64,000 nucleotides of DNA, from NCBI GenBank assembly GCA_951406725.2, contig CATOCA020000002.1, positions 62,001-126,000 on the forward strand, written 5' to 3'. Every line of letters begins with the position of its first letter. The stretch's first letter is position 1. This document shows, one piece after another, positions 35,030-63,210 of this stretch. This DNA comes from Octopus vulgaris (lineage: Eukaryota). The position numbers and the translations under genes were made by a program. The notes below the pieces were generated by a model. The model saw nothing but the letters and a program-made list of their open reading frames with translations, did not search any database and was not told the DNA's origin.

Positions 35030-35590
35030 TCACAGTATATACGGAACCATTTTTGTTAGAATGCCTTCGATAGAAGAAAGTCCAAAATAAATTTCACTGC
35101 AGCTGTCGGCGGGCGCGAACTCATTAAAATTAAAATGGAAGAAATACAAACTTATTTCAGATTGATCACCGACAAAGACGGTGAATCTAGGATAACACCA
35201 CCAAACAAAATAAAAAATTAAATTAAAGAAAAGACTATTGTCTATAAAGTATACAATGTAGAGAAAAATAAGATTTGAACACCAGGAGGAAAGCACCATC
35301 GAAAAGTGTCTTGGTGCGACTATGAAAGATATCTAACCAGAGGCGGTAAATTCGCCACAATAGAAGCAATGTTCGAGTCAACAGAGTGTGCAAGGGAGTA
35401 CTCGACTCGAACCTTACAAAGTGGAAATATTTTATTTTTACCTTTATATCTGGGACGTAGGACGTCCCGGATAAAAATCAAAAATATCCCCCCAGAAGTA
35501 GAGGTAGGCTGGATTGTAGCCACACTTCTATAGAAGAGGGAGGACAAGATACAATTGATCGAAATTGCAAGAGACGGGCCTACAATTCCA
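35030..35590 (+). mobile_element. Tx1/L1-type ORF1 fragment
   Basis: AREYSTRTLQSGNILFLPLYLGRRTSRIKI..W aligns with AKEVSTQTLKNEEIMLLPTDLGRRTTKVTV..W at 58458-58673. Confidence 0.65.
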
Positions 35591-45001: not shown

Positions 45002-46286
45002 TCAGTCACAGGTGGATGTGGTATATCTCGACTTTGCGAAGGCCTTTGACAAAGTCGACCACGGAGTGATATGTCACAAATTACTCAGACTCGGCATAAC
45101 AGGAAAAGTAGGTGAGTGGATACATGACTTCCTGAAGGACAGAAGCCAGATGGTTGCAGCCAATGGAGCCCTCTCGGGAAAGACACCAATAGCAAGCGGG
45201 GTGCCACAGGGCACAGTCTTGGGACCCTTGCTGTTTTTGGTGGCGCTCTCTGACATGCCCTTGGTAGCACAAACAACATCCCTCACTAGCTATGCTGATG
45301 ACACAAAGGTAGCACAGGCAATCAAAAACCCAGCTGATGCTGACCTTTTACAACAAGATCTGGATGCCATATACAAATGGGCTGAAGACAACAACATGCA
45401 ATTTAATGCTGGTAAATTTCAAGCCTTACAATATCAAGCTGTAAACACATATACATTACAACACAACTATACTGGTCCAGGAGGGATCGAAATCCCAGTA
45501 TCGAAATCAATACGGGACCTGGGGATAGACATGAGTGACGATGCATCTTTTTCTTCACACATCGCGAAGGTGGCGACAATGTGCAGACGACTCACTGGCT
45601 GGATCCTGAGGACATTCCGGACAAGAGACTGCGAGACCATGTTGACACTATGGAGGACATTTGTCCTAAGCCGCCTGGACTACTGCTCCCAACTGTGGTC
45701 ACCGCATAGTGTCAAACTAACCACAGAGCTTGAGACAATCCAAAGACATTTCACCAAGAGGATTTCCACCATGAAAGAAAAGAACTATTGGGAGAGGCTT
45801 AGGGAACTCAATTTGTACTCCTTGGAACGAAGACGAGAGAGATATGCAGTGATATACATATGGAAAATCCTGGAGGGACTAGCACCAAATTTTGGAATTG
45901 AGAGCTGTTCCAATCCCCATACAGGACGTCACTGTGTGGTGCCAAAGGTCCCGTCTTCCACATCCAGGGTAAGGAGCAGATACTGTAATAGCCTGGGGTT
46001 CAGGGGCCCTCAGCTGTTCAACAAACTGCCAAGAAAACTAAGAGATCTACATGATGCGGATGTGGACATTTTCAAAAAACATCTAGACAAGCTGCTTTCC
46101 GGGATCCCAGATGAACCCACTGCAAGGTACGAAGGTAACCTAAGGGCAGCAGCTACAAACTCTCTCTTAGATCAGTGGCCAGCCACGGCAAACTGGACTT
46201 AGAGAGGGTAGCAACAAGGGCGGTGCCCCAGCATGGCCTCAGCCGGATGGCTGAAACAAGTAAAAGAGTAAAAGAGTAAAAGAGTA
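45001..46286 (+). mobile_element. Young 5'-truncated CR1/L2-group LINE inserted in (TA)n
   Basis: Uninterrupted RT ORF, short 3' UTR, (AAAAGAGT)n tail. Confidence 0.95.
45012..46202 (+). CDS. Reverse transcriptase (ORF2) C-terminal 396 aa
   Basis: [47 protein letters not shown]. Confidence 0.93.
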
Positions 46287-54497: not shown

Positions 54498-56826
54498 CAA
54501 TTATTCCCAAACTTCATTCAACAGGAAGTGTGGGAAGTATTGACCAGGGTCATCCATTTTTGGCTCAAACTGTTAACATAACAACTGCTAGCTCGTGTGT
54601 GAGCTAGCAGGGGTTGGTTGCAGCAACTGCTAAGTTAGATAGGATGTGAGTTTTGGACTAAGTACAGCTGGACAGTCATCATCACAAGAAGGTAGGTGAA
54701 CTGTATATTATTTTCCCTCATACAACAGTTCTTTTTCTAGTCTTTCCTGTTTCACTCAATTAGTAAAATTTTCTTTCTTATTCTCCTTCACTTCTTTATA
54801 TTTTCTTTAAAAACTTCTCTATTTTTTGTAGGTTTTGACAATGGCAGACGCAGGAGCGAAGAAGAAACACCGGCAATATAATGTCAAATATTTGAAATAT
54901 GGCTTTATTCCATTACTTCACAGCAAGCAATTGCCGTTTCACCAGATATGTGAGAAGACATTCTCAAATGAAGCCATGAAGCCTTAAAGACTGAGCAAAC
55001 ATTTCAAGAAGTTGCATCTCAATAAAACCAATAAAGATGTGGGCTATTTCAAAGACTTGCATGACAAACATGGAAAGAGCAAAACTTTACATGACATGTT
55101 TGCCAGTGTGACACATAACAATGACAATGGCCTATGCACTTCTTATAATATTGCTCTCTTCATTGCCAAAGCAGGCAAAGCCCATAGAATTGGGGAAACT
55201 TTGATTGCTTAAGTAATTCATAAAGTTATGACAACTGTTCTGAAGAAAACTCCTGAACCAGTTTTGAAAGCTATCTCTTTGAGCAATAATACCAGACAGA
55301 GGGGCATTGATGAAATGGCCACTGATATTGAAGAAAATCTTTGCAACATTTTACGAAACATGGAGTTTAGCTTGCAACTAGATGAATTAACTTTGCTCAA
55401 TGACAAATTTCTGCTCTTGGCTTATGTACAATTCATTCATGGCAGGAAACAATACCAAGAAGTTCTGTTTGCTTGCACTATGGAAACCAATATGAAAGAA
55501 CACTGTATTTCATACTGTGGATGAATTTTTGAAGCAGAAAGAAATACCAATGAAAAACATTCTTGCATGTGCAACAGACGGTGCTGCATCTAAGGTTTGG
55601 TGGTTCTAAGGTTTCATCGCATTTCTCAAGCAAGCAGTCCTAAATGTTATGGTCATTCACTGTCTCGTCCATCAACAACATTTAGTCACTAAAAACATCA
55701 CTCCATGTCTAAATGCTTCTCTGACCATCGTGATTGCAGCTGTGAACAAAATCAAAGCTCACTCATTGAATTTGTGACTTTTCAAAATGCTGTGTTCTGA
55801 AAACAACGAAGAATTTGAGAGGCTGCTACTGCACACAGAGGTGTGATGACTTTCTAAAGGAAACTGCCTTGCTTGCTTTTTCTCACTCTTTATCTGTGTC
55901 ATTAATTTCTTACAGTCAGTGGATTTGTTGCTAACAGAACAACTCACAGCCATTAAGCTCCATGTTGCCTAGTTGGCTGACATTCTCACAAAGTTCAACA
56001 ACCTGAACCTCCAAATGCAAGGTGATGAAATGAACCTCATCAAATCCAAGTCAGCCATCCCTGGTTTCATTGTGAAACTGCCCTTTTACCAGTGAAATAT
56101 TGGATGCAAAGACTTCTGTCAATTTCCAAGCCTTAGAGAACTGGGAGAATGCTCATCTGATGATATGCTTCTCCTTTTCCCAGAGTATCTCAAGAGCATT
56201 GAAGCTGACATGAAACTGCATTTTCAGGATTTGTCAGATCAGGAAATCCTGCCTTGGATCTTGGACCCTTTTCAGGTCACAGATATCGACATGGACGGGC
56301 CCATTCAAAGAGAACTTATTGGACTTGTGAAATGATTTTTTTAAATGGCACGTTTACCAAGAATTTTGGCTGCAATCCACTGTTCCAGAAAAATTTCCTG
56401 CATTGAGGGAAAAAGTAAAGTTGTTTTTATTGCCTTCCCAACATCGTATTTAGTTGTTTAGTTTCAGTGTGGTGTCCCAGATTCTCAACAAGTCAAGAAA
56501 TCACCTGGATATTGTGCAGAGATGAGACCTGCGACATCACTCTACCGGCATGAAGCCCAGTATTGAAGAACTCTTGAGCAAGCATCAAATTCATCCTTCA
56601 CATTAATTACATGTATGACCATGGATATTGAAAAAAAATGCTATTCAGAACTATGTTTCTATCAACTTTACTAAGATTAGATGGTGGAAAACATCAATTT
56701 TACTTCAAGTACCTTCTTATCACAATAAACATAGTGTTGAACATTTTTTAGGGTGAGGCAGGGGTAATAGATGGGCGAAAGTATTGAAAAAGAAGCGACA
56801 GCTTGGTCAAGTTTGGGAAGCACTTG
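54498..56826 (+). mobile_element. hAT Buster/Charlie-type DNA transposon, degenerate (transposase 54841-56606)
   Basis: YLKYGF..CEKTFSNEAMKP*RL..H, ISLSNNTRQRGIDEMA, FSLQLDE, CATDGAAS, HCLVHQQHL, LLLHTEV, HPSH*; degenerate TIRs caattattcccaaactt / aagtttgggaagcacttg; TSD not seen. Confidence 0.88.
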
Positions 56827-57002: not shown

Positions 57003-57450
57003 TGCATTTCTAAATCTCTCAGAGAATTTATACAGTAGCAGTACGATAAGGTGATGTTATGTTGCCAACTTAATGTGGCAGTCCCATGAAAGGGAAGAAT
57101 GCTACTGCTATTTAGCCCCAGGAAACACTGTTTCCAGTTGGCCATGAACACATTTTCTATGTCCTTGTGTTTTCACAGGGGGATATAAGCACCTCCAACC
57201 AGCAAAGCCAGCATCCAGAAACTAGTTTCAGAGTCATTGCTCATCATCAGTCTGGAGTAGCATGGCTTGCTAGCTGTAGATGCTCATTCACCTTTGAAAA
57301 CAAATATATTTCAAGTGAAATACATTCACTGATTTCAAAAATAGAAATATTGCATTTCTAAATCTCTCAGAGAGATTTATACTGTAGCAGTACAAGGTAA
57401 TGTTATTTTTCCAACTTAATGTGGCAGTCCCATGAAAGGGAAGAATGCTA
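57003..57450 (-). mobile_element. Retrozyme-like HHR repeat, about 1.3 tandem units (period 348 bp)
   Basis: tgcatttctaaatctctcagag at 57003 and 57351; reverse complement of the 57465-57822 unit. Confidence 0.8.
57215..57255 (-). ncRNA. Minimal type I hammerhead ribozyme
   Basis: CCAGA-CTGATGA-TGAG CAATGA CTCT-GAAA-CTAG-TT-TCTGG; palindromic stem III ACUAGU; GUU site; U-U at the base of stem II. Confidence 0.75.
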
Positions 57451-57464
57451 TGAGCATGGACACT

Positions 57465-57822
57465 TAGCAAGCCATGCTACTCCAGACTGATGATGAGCAA
57501 TGATTCTGAAACTAGTTCCTGGGTGCTGGCTTTGCTGGGTGGAGGTGCTTATCTCCCCCTTTGAAAACCTAAAGACACAGATGTGTCATGACCAAATGGA
57601 AACGGTGTTTCCTAGGGCTAAATAGCAGTAGCATTCTTCCCTTTCATGGGACTGCCACATTAAGTTGGCAACATAACATCACCTTATTATGCTGCTACTG
57701 TATAAATATCTCTGAGGGATTTAGAAATGCAATATTTCTATTTTTGAAATGAGTGAAGGTATTTCATTTGAAATATATTTGTTTTCAAAGGCGAATGAGC
57801 ATCGACTGCTAGCAAGCCATGC
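57465..57822 (+). mobile_element. Retrozyme-like monomer (345-bp period) with HHR at 57482-57522
   Basis: Starts and ends with tagcaagccatgc; CCAGA-CTGATGA...GAAACTAGTT-CCTGG. Confidence 0.8.
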
Positions 57823-60800
57823 CTTTCTTCGTCTGTGACACGTTATTTTCATTTTGCTACCCTGCGTTATGTGAGTTCGTTTCTATCTGTTTCTTGTACA
57901 TTTGTGCTATTTGTTATATACCTTACCCGAATTTGAACTGTTGTCTTTTGACAAACTGTAATTTTCACCCTACGGGGCAGAAAATTTCTGATAATTTTTA
58001 TTCAAAATATTTTTGCGAACTGTTTAGTTTTTAACCTTTACGGGTTATTTTTCTGAAAATTTTTCTTGTCATGGAATTCAACCTTTCATCAAAAAAGGAT
58101 TTTCCTGAGATAGGAAAAGGAAATGCAACTGTGAACCAGCAGGATACAAAGGAAAAACAGAGTTTTTCAACCGCATGGGCGGCAATGCTACAGAACTTGA
58201 AGTAACAATGGACCAGCTTTTCAAGCTTAGAAATCTAATTAAAAAAAGTGGAGTGGAGACCAAGTTGTTGCCACCCCTTGAGACAGTACAAGCCATTAAT
58301 GTGAAAACAGTTGGGTACAAAGCCTATAACATCAAAGAAAAGTGTATAATGGATGTAAAAAAATGAAGCAGTAAAAAAATGTATGGCACCTATCTGGAAT
58401 AAAGTACGCTACGTTAGCTGAGGAGCAAGAAGTGCCCCAATTGAGTCACATTTCGAGTTGGCTAGCATAGCCAAGGAGGTATCAACACAAACGTTGAAGA
58501 ATGAAGAGATAATGCTGCTGCCCACTGACTTGGGTCGCAGGACCACAAAAGTGACAGTGGAAGAGATCTCGGTAGGGTATGAGTTAAAGTGGGTAGTAGC
58601 TGCAGTAGTGTACGATGTGGAGGAAGAAATTTCAATCCTACAAATGAGGAAAAAAGATGTGGTAAACTGGTGAGGACAATCCTTGGAAATGGTCATTCAA
58701 GCGGCCAAAATTTACCTGATAGGGTGTTGTAGGGGAGGGGCATACAATTCATATGTTGGTAGAAGGACATAGGCTCAGATGCTTCAAATGTGGAGAGAAG
58801 GGCTACATCCGTTCCAAATGCGCCAAAAAAAAGATGGTGAGGCCCCTCCCCAAAAAGCTGCAAACGGGAAGAAGGAAAAGAACATGACAAAGGAAGTGAA
58901 CAACAAAGAGTGAAATGCAAAAAAAGAAAGATGAAGTAGAAACTAAAGCAGACACGAGTAAAGACAACGAAGAAATGGACCTCCCCACAGTCACCCATAA
59001 GAGAAGAAAAGATACACATTTGCAACTCCCTCCCCAAACAAAAAAAAAATCAACAAAAATGACAGCAAACACACAAAACCAAATTCCCCAATCCAACCCC
59101 ATTTGCCAAACTCCTCCCCAAAATACAAGAAAAAATTGTGATGTTCAAGGAAAATAATGAACCATTAGCAAAAGTGATCAAACACCATCACATGGTGAGA
59201 ACTTATAAACAAAATAAAGACACACCAAAAGATGTAAGATTTGCTAAAATGGACAGAACCCTTTTTCCAGAGCTGAAATCTCACTATCATGAGGATATAG
59301 GAGATGTTAGCTCTGATGTGACAGAGGGGAGGCTTATTGTAAGTCCAGCTGCCACACCTAGAAAAAGCCCAGCAGCTACACCATCTAAAGAGAAAGATGG
59401 GGAGGTAGGCGGATTTGTGCAGCCCCTCCCCCAACTTAAATTGTAAGTACCCCTTTAAAATTTTTATACCATGTCGATTAAGTTAGGGTGCATGAATGTG
59501 TGCGGTCTGGGGTCGTAATGGAAACAAACTTGTTTCTTGGATGACCTCAGGTTACATGATATAGATGTGTGCATCGTAACTGAGTCCAAAATGAGTGGAC
59601 CACAAGCGTTCTTGCCTCTCTTGAATGGCTATGAAAAATTAATTGCTCCTAGCTGACAAGGAGGAGGGGGTGTGGTGGTCTTATTCAGGAAGAACTTGGA
59701 TGTACAAGTTAGTACTGTCTTTCTGGATCCAGAAGGTAGGCTGGTCATCCTGGATGTGACCCACAAGATTAAACAGTCCTTCAGGTTGGTAGCTGTCTAT
59801 GCTCCTAACGAGTGTGGGCAGTCTGGTTTTTTTTGAGACCTGGAGCAGTTTCTAGTGATGTCAAAAACAGTAGTTCTGTTAGAAGACTTTAATACTATCC
59901 TCGATGCACGGGTGGATGGTGTTGGCTCAACTGATAGGAAAGGAAATCCTGGCCTCAAAGACTACTAGAGAGCTATAATCTAGTAGACCGTTATAGACTG
60001 GATGAACCAAGCATTCCACAGTGGACGTGGAGTAATAACGACGGCTTCACAGATCTTCTATAGATAGGGTATTTGTTAGAGATAGGGATACATTTAGATG
60101 TCCATGATTTTTTATTGTACCTTACATGGACCACAAATTTGTGATGTGTGAGGTACGCAGATAAATGTCAAAGACAGAGACCTGGGTACTTGGAGATGAA
60201 CAAGTTTATTTTGACTTGTAAAGTCTTCCGTGCCCGGATTAAGGAGTTAGTACAGAGGGCACTATGTGACACCATCATTAATAATAGATGGTAGCATGCC
60301 TCCAAGAGAGCCATTCGTTTAGAGCCTATTAGATTTAGCAATCAGCTAAGTTTGGATAGATCTAGAAGAGAAGGGGAATTAGTTAAGAATTTAGATGAGG
60401 CTATGGACTCTGGCTCTGCTTCAAGAGTGCAGGCAGCGACAATGACCTTGTACCGTCACCTCAAAGCCAAACATGAAGGTAGCAGAGTTAGAGCTAAGTT
60501 ACATGCAGGGTTGAGGAAGTGTTAACATTGCTGGATGGGCAAGTTGTGTGGAGAGTTATAAGGGCGAAAAAGCCTCTATAAAGTTTTTAACTGACAAACA
60601 GAGGTGCAAGATCTATGGACAGGAAATGATGCAAAGGGCCTTTCACCAGCATTTCACCCGGTTGTTTGGGTAAAGCAGAGCACTTGAGCTTGGGGAGCCC
60701 TTAAAGGACTTTCTAGCTGGTGGGCCATGACTCTTGGCAAAGGAGGCGAAGTGCTGTGAAGGACCGATTACTCCTGCGGAAGTAAAAGAGGTGTTGGCCA

Positions 60801-62981
60801 AGTGTGCCAGGGCTGGATGATCTACTCTATGAGTTTTATCGTAGCATGCCGGACTTGTTTGGGGACCTGCTGGCCAGCGTCTACACAAACTAGCAATGGA
60901 ATGGGAGGATTCCCAGCTCTGTGAGTGGTGACATTGATCCAGAAGGATCCAAGAAAGGGGTATAATAGTAATTATAGGCCCATAACTCTACTTAATGTAG
61001 AGTTAAAGCTTTTGGCCAAGGTGTTTGCCAAAAGGTTGACAGCTGTCGTGGAGAAACTTGTAGGAAAGGCACAGACATGTGCCATCCCAGGCAGGTTGAT
61101 CCAGGACAATCTTTACCTTATATGCTACACCTTAGACAGGGTTGGTAAATTATCCAGTAAAGGTGAGGCAATGGTCCATTTAGCCCAAAGTAAAGCGTTT
61201 GATAGGGTAAACCACCAGTAACTGGCAGTGGTCCTCAAAGTGGCTGGGCTGGGCCTGGACATCCATAGGTGGATCTCCGGCATGTACAGCGACATCAAAT
61301 CCACCATCCAGATAAACAACCGTTTATCTATCAGAGCTGTTTTCAATCAAGCACTCAGTTTGTCAAGGGTGTTGCCTGTCTCCACTTCTGTACATTTTGG
61401 CTCTTGAGCCATTGCTGCGGAAGTTGGAGAAGTTGAGAGGCAATCCTAATGAAATCAGATGCGGTAAGTCTGTTTCTGCTTATGCAGATGACATCACCTT
61501 CATCGTGTCCAATGAAGTGCAGTTACCTTGAGTAAAGGGTGCTATCAAAGGATACGAGGCAGTGGTAGGGGCAAATGTTAACAAGGACAAGTCCATTAGC
61601 TTGTGCCTCGGCACCTGGAGGAGCAAGTCGATATCATCCAGTGTCATGAGTCACTGGACAGATGGTCCAGTTAAGTTGCTTGGAGTTTGGTTTGGACCAG
61701 ACTCCCAGTTGGAGAAGAATTGGAACAGGTGGCAGACAAGGTAGAGACTCTAGTACGGACTTGGAACAAAGGGCTCTGTCCTTGAAAGGAAGGGCAGAGG
61801 TGGTACAGATGTTTATTGCATGTCATCACCTAGTACCTGACTGTTGTCCCTTGCCCCAATTTGTGGATAAACAAGTTGGAGTGCCTCCTTTTCTGCTTTT
61901 TGTGGAAGGGAGGAAAGCCACTTGTGAGGTGCTCCATTTGCTGCCAGGAACCATTAAAGAGTGGTTTAGGGATGCTCTGGTTAATGATGTGCAGGCATGC
62001 GTTGAGGCTGAGGTATCTCTTGCATTACCTGGAGGGTGATAAGGTGTGGAATCTGCTGGCAGAGGAATTCTTTCCACGACGAGCCTCTTTGAAGCAATTT
62101 AAACCTAGTTTCATTAAAAGATGTAATCTGACTGAATAGCAAAAGGAGTGTTGACAGGCACTCATGCTTATCCACAAGATGGGCAATGCCGGCAGTGGGA
62201 ATATCACCTTAGTTTTGTAAAGAAGGCTGGTAGAGTACAAAAACGATGGCGCCCTAGGAAGGGCTCTGGGGTTCGATGAGAACCAACTTACCAACCTGTT
62301 TGAAAAAACTTTCGGACCAGGGTAATTGGATATTTACCAAAAATCTCTGGCCTGGCAGTGCTACAGGAATGCTTTACCTGTTCATGATAAGTTATCCAGA
62401 CACAGAATGTCAGTGCCAATAACGTGTCCAAGATGTGGGCTGGACGATGAAACCATCCAGCACATTTTTGGGAAGAGTACAGCTATTGGTGAAATCTATA
62501 ATATAGATTGTATTACCAACTGGACTCTTGAAGGAAGGTGAGGTATGTCTTTTCTGTACAGTTGTTGTGCTGAAAGAATGTGTGTGGAAGACTAGAATGC
62601 AAGGACTCATGACAGGATCCTTCATCTCTGGCCCTGGTTTGCTACAATTCTTCAGATATCATCTGAAGAGCAAGATAGGGCTGGAGAGGAGGATCCTGTC
62701 GTGAAGTGTGTTTGAGGAAAGATGGAAGTCTGTGTTAAGAAATGTAGGTGCAAGTAACCCTACTTAATCTGCATTGGAAAAAAAAGGAAAGGAGTAGTTG
62801 CTGGGCCTTTGAGGTAACCAGGCATAAACCTCTCCCCAAAAGGAAAAAGGCTATATATTAAAATTAATCATTTCATTAAAATTTTTAAATAAGGATCATT
62901 TGAACTCATATTAACTTTTTGGCATGTGTTGTCCTGTGCTGTACCATCTATGTGTGACATTTATTGTCTTAACAAAAAATT
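57823..62981 (+). mobile_element. Full-length degenerate L1/Tx1-clade LINE (ORF1 about 58071-59446, ORF2 about 59471-62767)
   Basis: ORF1 zinc knuckle CFKCGEKGYIRSKC; APE MSIKLGCMNVCGL, AVYAP, DFN, MDHK; RT NYRPITLLNVELK, SKAFDRV, AYADD; CPRC..DETIQHIF; A-rich tail; TSD gctagcaagccatgc at 57808-57822 and 62984-62998. Confidence 0.92.
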
Positions 62982-63210
62982 CAGCTAGCAAGCCATGCTA
63001 CTCCAGACTGATGATGAGTAATGTCTCTGAAACTAGTCTCTGAATGCTGGTTTTGCTGAGAGGAGGTGCTTATCTCCCCTTTGAAAATATAAGGACACAG
63101 GAAATGTATCAAGGCCAACATGAAACAGTATATCCTAGGGCTAAATAGCAGTAGCATTCTTCTCTTTCATGGGACTGCCACATTAATTTGGCAACATAAC
63201 ATCACCTTAT
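62982..63210 (+). mobile_element. Continuation of the retrozyme-like repeat with HHR at 63003-63042
   Basis: CAGA-CTGATGA-TGAG TAATGT CTCT-GAAA-CTAG-TC-TCTG; GUC site. Confidence 0.8.

Follow-up and report, generated by a model that had tools for sequence, protein, structure and literature searches.

Why does a full-length long interspersed nuclear element (LINE) lie inside a hammerhead ribozyme repeat, and what singles out the base at which it was inserted? The question is raised by a 64,000-nucleotide stretch of the Octopus vulgaris genome (contig CATOCA020000002.1, positions 62,001 to 126,000 of the forward strand; hereafter, the window), in which a Tx1-like LINE interrupts a retrozyme-type repeat. 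A sequence-only reading of the window had suggested a LINE family that targets retrozyme arrays and exploits the transcription and self-cleavage of the host repeat to release its own RNA. Our analysis of the window and of related loci leads to another definition of the target: because near-identical elements use U2 small nuclear RNA (snRNA) genes and TATA promoters, mostly without a ribozyme, it is better described as a transcription start than as a ribozyme arm. On sequence grounds, we consider it fairly probable (roughly 0.7) that this LINE lineage seeks transcription starts and captures promoters, the window copy being dead.

The insertion and its surroundings comprise the following features, in window coordinates:

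57003..57450, minus strand: hammerhead-repeat array of about 1.3 units, head-to-head with the plus-strand array, with the fold-back junction near 57450
57327..57333, minus strand: U2-type promoter motif ATCAGTG, 59 nt before the empty target site, the same offset as in U2 genes
57260..57274, minus strand: empty (uninterrupted) target site
57220..57250, minus strand: type I hammerhead core with a GUU triplet (z -4.58)
57451..57807, plus strand: upstream repeat unit (period 345 nt), without a promoter motif of its own ahead
57487..57517, plus strand: upstream hammerhead core with a GUU triplet and U.U closing stem II; predicted cut after 57517 (z -3.13)
57741..57745, plus strand: T5 run directly ahead of the decayed promoter motif
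57749..57755, plus strand: decayed U2-type promoter motif ATGAGTG, at -59 from the start of the target-site duplication (TSD), matching the family consensus offset
57774..57781, plus strand: AT-rich TATA-like element at about -34
57808..57822, plus strand: 5' TSD, its first base the putative transcription start
57823..62983, plus strand: full-length dead L1-group (Tx1-like) LINE without a poly(A) tail
58047..59389, plus strand: remnant of open reading frame (ORF) 1 in 3 frame segments with 9 stops; CCHC knuckle in the intact relative
59468..62764, plus strand: ORF2 remnant (apurinic/apyrimidinic-type (APE) endonuclease, reverse transcriptase (RT), zf-RVT) in 8 frame segments with 19 stops
62984..62998, plus strand: 3' TSD, which regenerates the 5' arm of the extended stem I
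62984..63210, plus strand: downstream part of the interrupted repeat unit, up to a TA microsatellite
63008..63038, plus strand: downstream hammerhead core with a GUC triplet, palindromic stem III and U.U closing stem II; predicted cut after 63038, 55 nt past the LINE end (z -0.87)

The 15-mer of the TSD occurs exactly at 57808-57822, at 62984-62998 and, on the minus strand, at 57260-57274, with a two-mismatch copy at 57463-57477 (chance expectation 0.04), and the LINE between the two TSD copies spans 5,161 nt. The start assigned to the element by the sequence-only reading stands, and its end is moved from 62981 to 62983, because AAAAATTCA is the conserved 3' end of other LINE copies; the TSD is therefore the exact 15-bp sequence, and the 17-bp version with one mismatch is dropped. 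Once 57823-62998 is excised, what is left is the sequence that the minus strand and other, empty sites in the genome show, which bears out the claim that removal of the LINE restores the repeat, and hammerhead-type cores of the same sense do lie on both sides of it. The promoter-like stretch 57749-57781 sits between the upstream ribozyme and the LINE, and the promoter motif lies at -59 from the occupied as well as the empty window site.

Tabulating the flanks of LINE ends, the check that had been proposed for targeting, revealed recurrent junctions at one base of the repeat. A genome search with the 3' end, in which the best 40 of 710 candidates were scored, yielded 30 loci, and the 29 other than the window gave 25 places after three were merged as one array and two without an end were dropped; flank classes were assigned by eye plus BLAST. 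Complete 3' ends ran straight into the window's hammerhead repeat at 18 of the 25 places, 16 of them at the same base and 2 with short deletions. Five others ran into sister hammerhead-like repeats, one into a TSD and the head of another LINE, and one into 13 target-like bases followed by unrelated DNA; none (0/25) lay in unrelated DNA from the first base. For comparison, target preference among Tx1 families has been defined as more than 20% of flanks in one repeat type (PMC4494074; this and every other paper named below is cited for the portion of its text available to us), a share that the 18 of 25 found here exceeds. At the 5' end, 24 places, counted after one array was merged and 4 loci without a 5' end were dropped, were preceded by the upstream half of the window's repeat (5), sister repeats (9), the tail of another LINE plus TSD (9) or an unclear flank (1). 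Viewed from the target side, 5 of 29 other repeat loci carried a LINE tail at the same base, with differing tail sequences, and an A-rich LINE-type tail preceded 10 of 100 listed exact target sites (126 matches in total; judged by eye). With at least 2,633 first-look candidate copies of the repeat, simple arithmetic puts the chance of a random insertion at the target base and strand at about 5e-7, or 5e-5 if the copies are 100-fold more numerous. Site-specific insertion of this LINE family in the hammerhead repeat is thus almost certain, and the suggested retrozyme-targeting family is real in this sense. The 3' junctions are precise and lack poly(A), TSDs measure 14-20 bp, insertion is in the sense orientation, and tandem LINE arrays re-use one TSD; head-to-tail arrays of 9 and 6 near-intact LINEs with a 5.28-kb period lie at G000:C9:59207107-59249628 and C5:29181887-29208559.

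The wider lineage, however, does not keep to ribozymes. An RT search listed 150 places, and 120 of the 149 others were fetched, those skipped being mainly internal members of tandem arrays. The 3' flanks of these 120 loci fell into hammerhead-repeat types (52 loci: B, C, D, E and one A-like), U2 snRNA (4), six recurrent non-hammerhead targets (28) and other sequences (24), with no tail detected at 12; two loci mis-binned by the 3'-flank pattern were reassigned by eye. Hammerhead repeats were thus the commonest target class in the sample. In trees, a non-hammerhead group (49 tips, support 0.905) nested within hammerhead-targeting lineages, and the U2-inserted elements nested in a C/D lineage; the later tree omitted rows with >150 gaps or without a tail. 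U2 and hammerhead-C/D elements were 98.6-99.1% identical over 5.5 kb. In a set of 55 endonucleases, which held no U2 endonuclease, identity reached 98-100% between different non-hammerhead (TATA-type) targets and 95-97% among B, C and D.

What these targets share is a position relative to promoter elements. An ATCAG-type motif lies at -57 to -61 from +1 in 18 of 20 U2 loci, the other two being occupied by a LINE, and the TSD of U2 insertions starts within 3 nt of +1. With a slightly looser pattern, 39 of 42 hammerhead sites show the motif 55-62 nt ahead of the TSD start, and 10 of 17 empty family-A sites show it at -55 to -62. A sub-clade nested in the lineage places its insertions roughly 30 nt past TATA boxes. 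Among these other targets, 39 sites were reduced to 21 distinct ones and scanned with a TATA consensus allowing at most one mismatch: a TATA-like match occupies -36 to -26 in 12 of 21, vs 0-2 of 21 in eight other windows, and in 11 of 20 once one mis-binned B site is excluded. A fixed offset from promoter elements across unrelated targets, the hallmark of position-specific integrators such as Ty3 and TRE5, is therefore found here. In all four U2-inserted elements, moreover, the 14 nt between the U2 TSD and the element body match the TSD of the hammerhead-C site L238 with 1 mismatch, which is the expected remnant, since a transcript starting at the TSD start would leave such a leader after a jump to a new target. 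Taken as sequence patterns, these offsets make it likely that the target base in the hammerhead repeat is the start site of a U2-snRNA-type promoter.

A T4-5 run directly precedes the promoter motif in families A-D, and many repeat copies end near it; it is a possible terminator or preferred start of reverse transcription. Because of this run, an RNA polymerase III (U6-type) promoter was considered; the motif occurs in 0 of 20 U6 loci, which makes such a promoter less likely. In seven U6 loci (L152, L154, L159-L163), an octamer-like motif lies near -78 and a TATA-like box near -30, and the U2-type motif is missing. A coverage gap at L124:7091-7161 was dismissed as a multi-mapping artefact of an internal duplication.

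Several points weigh against the promoter-seeking interpretation. The promoter motif was chosen by eye from the same data, and 9 of the 21 non-snRNA-type sites have no TATA match. Independent cases are few, because U2 upstream regions come in about three types and B, C and D are related repeats; some TATA targets, too, are RTE-like 5' ends with a relationship to one another, and a single event may have produced all four U2 leaders. Transcription starts and RNA ends are deduced throughout from sequence patterns. A few residue changes could explain some target switches, because the Tx1L endonuclease is reported to read about 10 bp itself (PMC1919474). Finally, when 20 older family-A copies were re-examined with 6.5 kb of upstream sequence, 17 had no upstream repeat half or TSD at the 5' break; both were present there in 2 (L141, L149), and in L132 they lie 4.6 kb further up.

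With a 345-nt period, the host repeat fits the description of retrozymes as type I hammerheads in non-coding units of 170-400 nt, solo or tandem, and the fetched loci (1.47 Mb) contain 76 distinct type I motifs, against 0 in shuffles. The motif filter demanded stem pairing, so that the pair types and core positions alone are informative: positions 3/8 (n=76) are C-G in 51, U-A in 12, U-G in 8 and C-A in 5. The cleavage triplet is GUC in 67 of the 76 and GUU in the window's upstream copy, and a non-canonical U.U at 10.1/11.1 closes stem II in 24 of 31 family-A ribozymes. Rfam at its gathering score gave no match in the window. When the two window ribozymes were co-folded, the outcome was an extended intermolecular duplex instead of a double hammerhead; the computed stem III palindrome duplex has -6.7 kcal/mol. 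Short palindromic stem III motifs have been described as dimer-dependent, and U3-A8 is a described variant in Penelope ribozymes (PMC4209133).

As a rival model, the earlier proposal has the LINE aim at the ribozyme arm, share a transcript with the array and leave it through cleavage by the hammerheads on either side, much as R2 is freed by a ribozyme of its own. It draws support from an intact ribozyme pattern behind the LINE at 34 of 42 sites, from cores that covary like functional ribozymes (n=76) and from a fairly constant distance of 22-33 nt between TSD start and ribozyme core. An intact same-sense ribozyme within 450 nt upstream is present, however, at only 8 of the 42 sites; the R2-like rule that each full-length copy has a ribozyme at or ahead of its 5' end thus does not hold, and the bracketing is better viewed as a consequence of tandem arrangement than as a requirement. 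In the window, the promoter motif comes after the upstream ribozyme, which combines GUU with the U.U mismatch; sisters with 99% identity occupy U2 genes; and the leader retained by the U2 elements starts where the TSD does, whereas a cleavage site would lie about 300 nt further upstream. We rate this account as very unlikely. Of the release model, use of host-repeat transcription probably survives, and 5'-end release by an upstream ribozyme finds no support. Classical Tx1 specificity would have the endonuclease of each sub-family read a short target sequence or hairpin, the match to start sites being a by-product of shared initiator-like sequence. Tx1L provides a precedent (PMC1919474), a weak pyrimidine-purine word (for example, TTC/ATCG or T/CACT) recurs at many nick sites, and family E pairs the most different target with the most divergent endonuclease (77-89%). 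Endonucleases that are 98-100% identical nevertheless act at unrelated target sequences, the offsets to the upstream motif stay fixed though TSD sequences differ, and a word of 4-5 bases is insufficient for the observed concentration in a 2.8-Gb genome, all of which leaves endonuclease reading unlikely as the explanation.

Homing guided by RNA alone, in which read-through tails choose the site without promoter factors and start-site copies dominate because they are transcribed, would account for the precise junctions without poly(A), for the re-use of one TSD in tandem arrays and for the loyalty of near-identical proteins to different targets. It does not account for one-off sites that could not have been copied from a parent tail and still lie about 30 nt behind a TATA-like box, including those of the 5'-truncated L107, L108, L123 and L193, and as a full explanation it seems quite unlikely, although it may be partly true alongside promoter seeking. 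In a hitchhiking scenario, a single chance insertion into the repeat, or a few, would have multiplied as LINE-repeat chimeras through Penelope machinery or through duplication: 17 of the 20 re-examined copies, without upstream half and TSD, fit this picture, and the Penelope-like fold-back copy at L131:5653-6729, which spans a LINE tail and the repeat, suggests co-mobilisation by Penelope-type machinery. Such hitchhiking probably explains a share of these junctions, some of which may be LINE-tail-plus-repeat chimeras that moved together, or simply decayed copies. Yet several different LINE tails meet the same base, 5'-truncated copies carry their own TSD and upstream repeat half (L141, L149, L099, L106, L254), and young families at other repeats mostly retain TSDs. 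These independent truncation points with TSDs contradict hitchhiking as the sole explanation, which we regard as highly improbable, and, together with the young families, they make the case for targeting independent of the old junctions.

Under the interpretation we prefer, the seeking of transcription starts, the first nick would be placed at or near +1 by promoter-bound factors or the open initiation complex, and not by endonuclease sequence reading alone. The captured promoter would then transcribe the TSD and the LINE, so that in the hammerhead repeat the LINE probably uses its host's transcription. RNA reading past the LINE end would carry target sequence, pair with the nicked primer strand and thereby hold each sub-family to its target; pairing of a read-through tail with the primer strand has a precedent in R1Bm. 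The downstream ribozyme may trim this tail at +55, probably only as a dimer, and that it makes a working 3' end is doubtful. Retrozyme arrays would be struck for the many harmless promoters that they offer, and not out of a need for paired ribozymes to release the RNA. A tentative extension, which we hold to be somewhat unlikely in its full form, is targeting in two layers: promoter machinery would set the nick at +1 of snRNA-type or TATA promoters, and the read-through tail, ribozyme-trimmed in retrozyme hosts, would guide the choice of promoter family.

As to the identity of the LINE, its ORF1 and ORF2 remnants align collinearly to an intact relative from the same genome (ORF2 at 59-74%), in which PF03372, PF00078 and PF13966 (P0001) and PF00098 (P0002) are recognized. 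The L1-group architecture is present: an ORF2 with N-terminal APE endonuclease, RT and C-terminal zinc-binding region, and a separate ORF1. The best solved match of the intact relative is human L1 ORF2p (E 1e-64), with R2 at E 2e-24, in a comparison where other clades had no solved reference, and its nearest named protein is from Argonauta hians (63% identical). Tx1L, Keno, Kibi and Koshi were not among the protein search returns, and a search with the endonuclease region returned nothing; 'Tx1-like' is therefore a label, not a tested placement. The RT tree had only unnamed or hypothetical proteins as outgroups, and the position of the window copy was unstable across two protein trees because the copy is decayed. 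A metagenome scan yielded one locus with a distant relative (L271, 27% identity), without a usable junction. Elsewhere in the window lie a second Tx1-like ORF1 fragment (35081-35572, 34% to P0002), an RT fragment from another LINE (45018-45338) and decayed coding fragments (55213-56600) that we take to resemble a DNA-transposon transposase.

Several targets of the wider lineage appear to be mobile elements themselves. Targets t2 and t3 (3' flanks of L122, L215, L216, L218-L220, L222 and L223) resemble the 5' ends of LINEs that we presume to be RTE-like; an endonuclease-type ORF follows in L122 and L220. Target t1 (L118, L119, L203-L205, L208-L212, L214) and L207 look like 5' ends of other Tx1-like LINEs, with ORF1-like fragments in L203 and L207. 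Target t4 (L110, L194, L200, L229, L241) is a clustered repeat or gene family struck repeatedly, with four sites in G000:C27:22.8-22.95 Mb. In L193, a minimal-hammerhead repeat (L193 3' flank) holds a lineage member 29 nt downstream of a TATA-like box. The core of this repeat matches a repeat that adjoins a GIY-YIG ORF (L275 near 2376, oriented), so a Penelope end repeat, too, may serve as a target. Many 781-aa open frames with GIY-YIG occur in G000 (for example, C16:20838796 and C16:33685215), with minimal U3-A8 hammerhead-like motifs downstream, and are probably young Penelope elements. A Penelope end repeat would flank an ORF with RT plus GIY-YIG. An autonomous Penelope partner of the repeats was not found in the 12 of 148 GIY-YIG loci examined: repeats A-E match no ends of these 12. 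The fold-back geometry of the repeats is Penelope-like.

Known targets of Tx1 families include other transposons, U2 genes and microsatellites (PMC4494074, PMC4640811). Among the families aimed at transposons are Xenopus Tx1L in Tx1D and the crocodilian Tx1-Mar, Tx1-8_Crp, Tx1-4_AMi and Tx1-9_AMi, for which transcription from the flanking element has been raised (PMC4494074). The octopus LINE resembles them as an APE-type LINE at a fixed site in a multicopy mobile element, with TSD and tandem re-insertion; it differs from them in holding a constant position with respect to a promoter motif in otherwise unrelated targets, and in the use of different targets by near-identical elements. No hammerhead-repeat target is listed among the Tx1 families in the available part of PMC4494074. 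Like Keno and Utopia (PMC4640811), its sisters occupy U2 genes (4/120 loci), but Keno and Utopia have one site in common, whereas in the octopus the TSD at U2 starts within 3 nt of +1, and U2 is one target among many. The placement, position-specific rather than sequence-specific and near a transcription start, recalls Ty3, Tj1 (both with long terminal repeats) and the Dictyostelium elements TRE5-A and NLTR-A (L1 clade), which integrate at RNA polymerase III genes via TFIIIB; TRE5-A illustrates that, in an APE LINE, ORF1 can serve as the tether to a transcription factor (PMC5911963). Ty3 and TRE5, however, act at RNA polymerase III genes of yeast and amoeba, TRE5 44-54 bp upstream and in opposite orientation, whereas the octopus LINE lies in sense at +1 of U2-type and TATA promoters. 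With R2 (PMC6765202) it shares reliance on a host transcription unit, but R2 has its own HDV-like ribozyme at the 5' end, and here the ribozyme is the target's, behind the 3' end, usually with none at the 5' side. The repeats resemble retrozymes of the non-LTR type and Penelope end repeats (PMC7229834, PMC4209133, bioRxiv 10.64898/2026.07.22.740005) in their non-coding unit of about 345 nt, type I hammerhead, short palindromic stem III and U3-A8 variants in sister families; in the available text of these papers, the last with 0 matches for Tx1, neither a U2-type promoter motif per unit nor occupation by a LINE is described. An octopus repeat annotation reports 13 recently active L1-Tx1 families, with no mention of target, ribozyme or promoter in the portion available (PMC13282606). 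In the literature outside Repbase Reports, subscription journals and supplements, seen in part, we found no description of a LINE that targets hammerhead repeats or snRNA-type or TATA starts.

Target-specific LINEs are usually explained by sequence reading of the endonuclease; here, intact elements 99% identical sit on unrelated sequences that share only the distance from a promoter motif. This makes it testable how site-specific LINEs switch targets and how they are transcribed without a promoter of their own. If targeting does proceed in two layers, target choice would be reprogrammable via RNA with the protein almost unchanged. The findings further suggest that animal retrozymes carry an as yet unmapped U2-type promoter, and they point to an integrator that delivers cargo at transcription starts.

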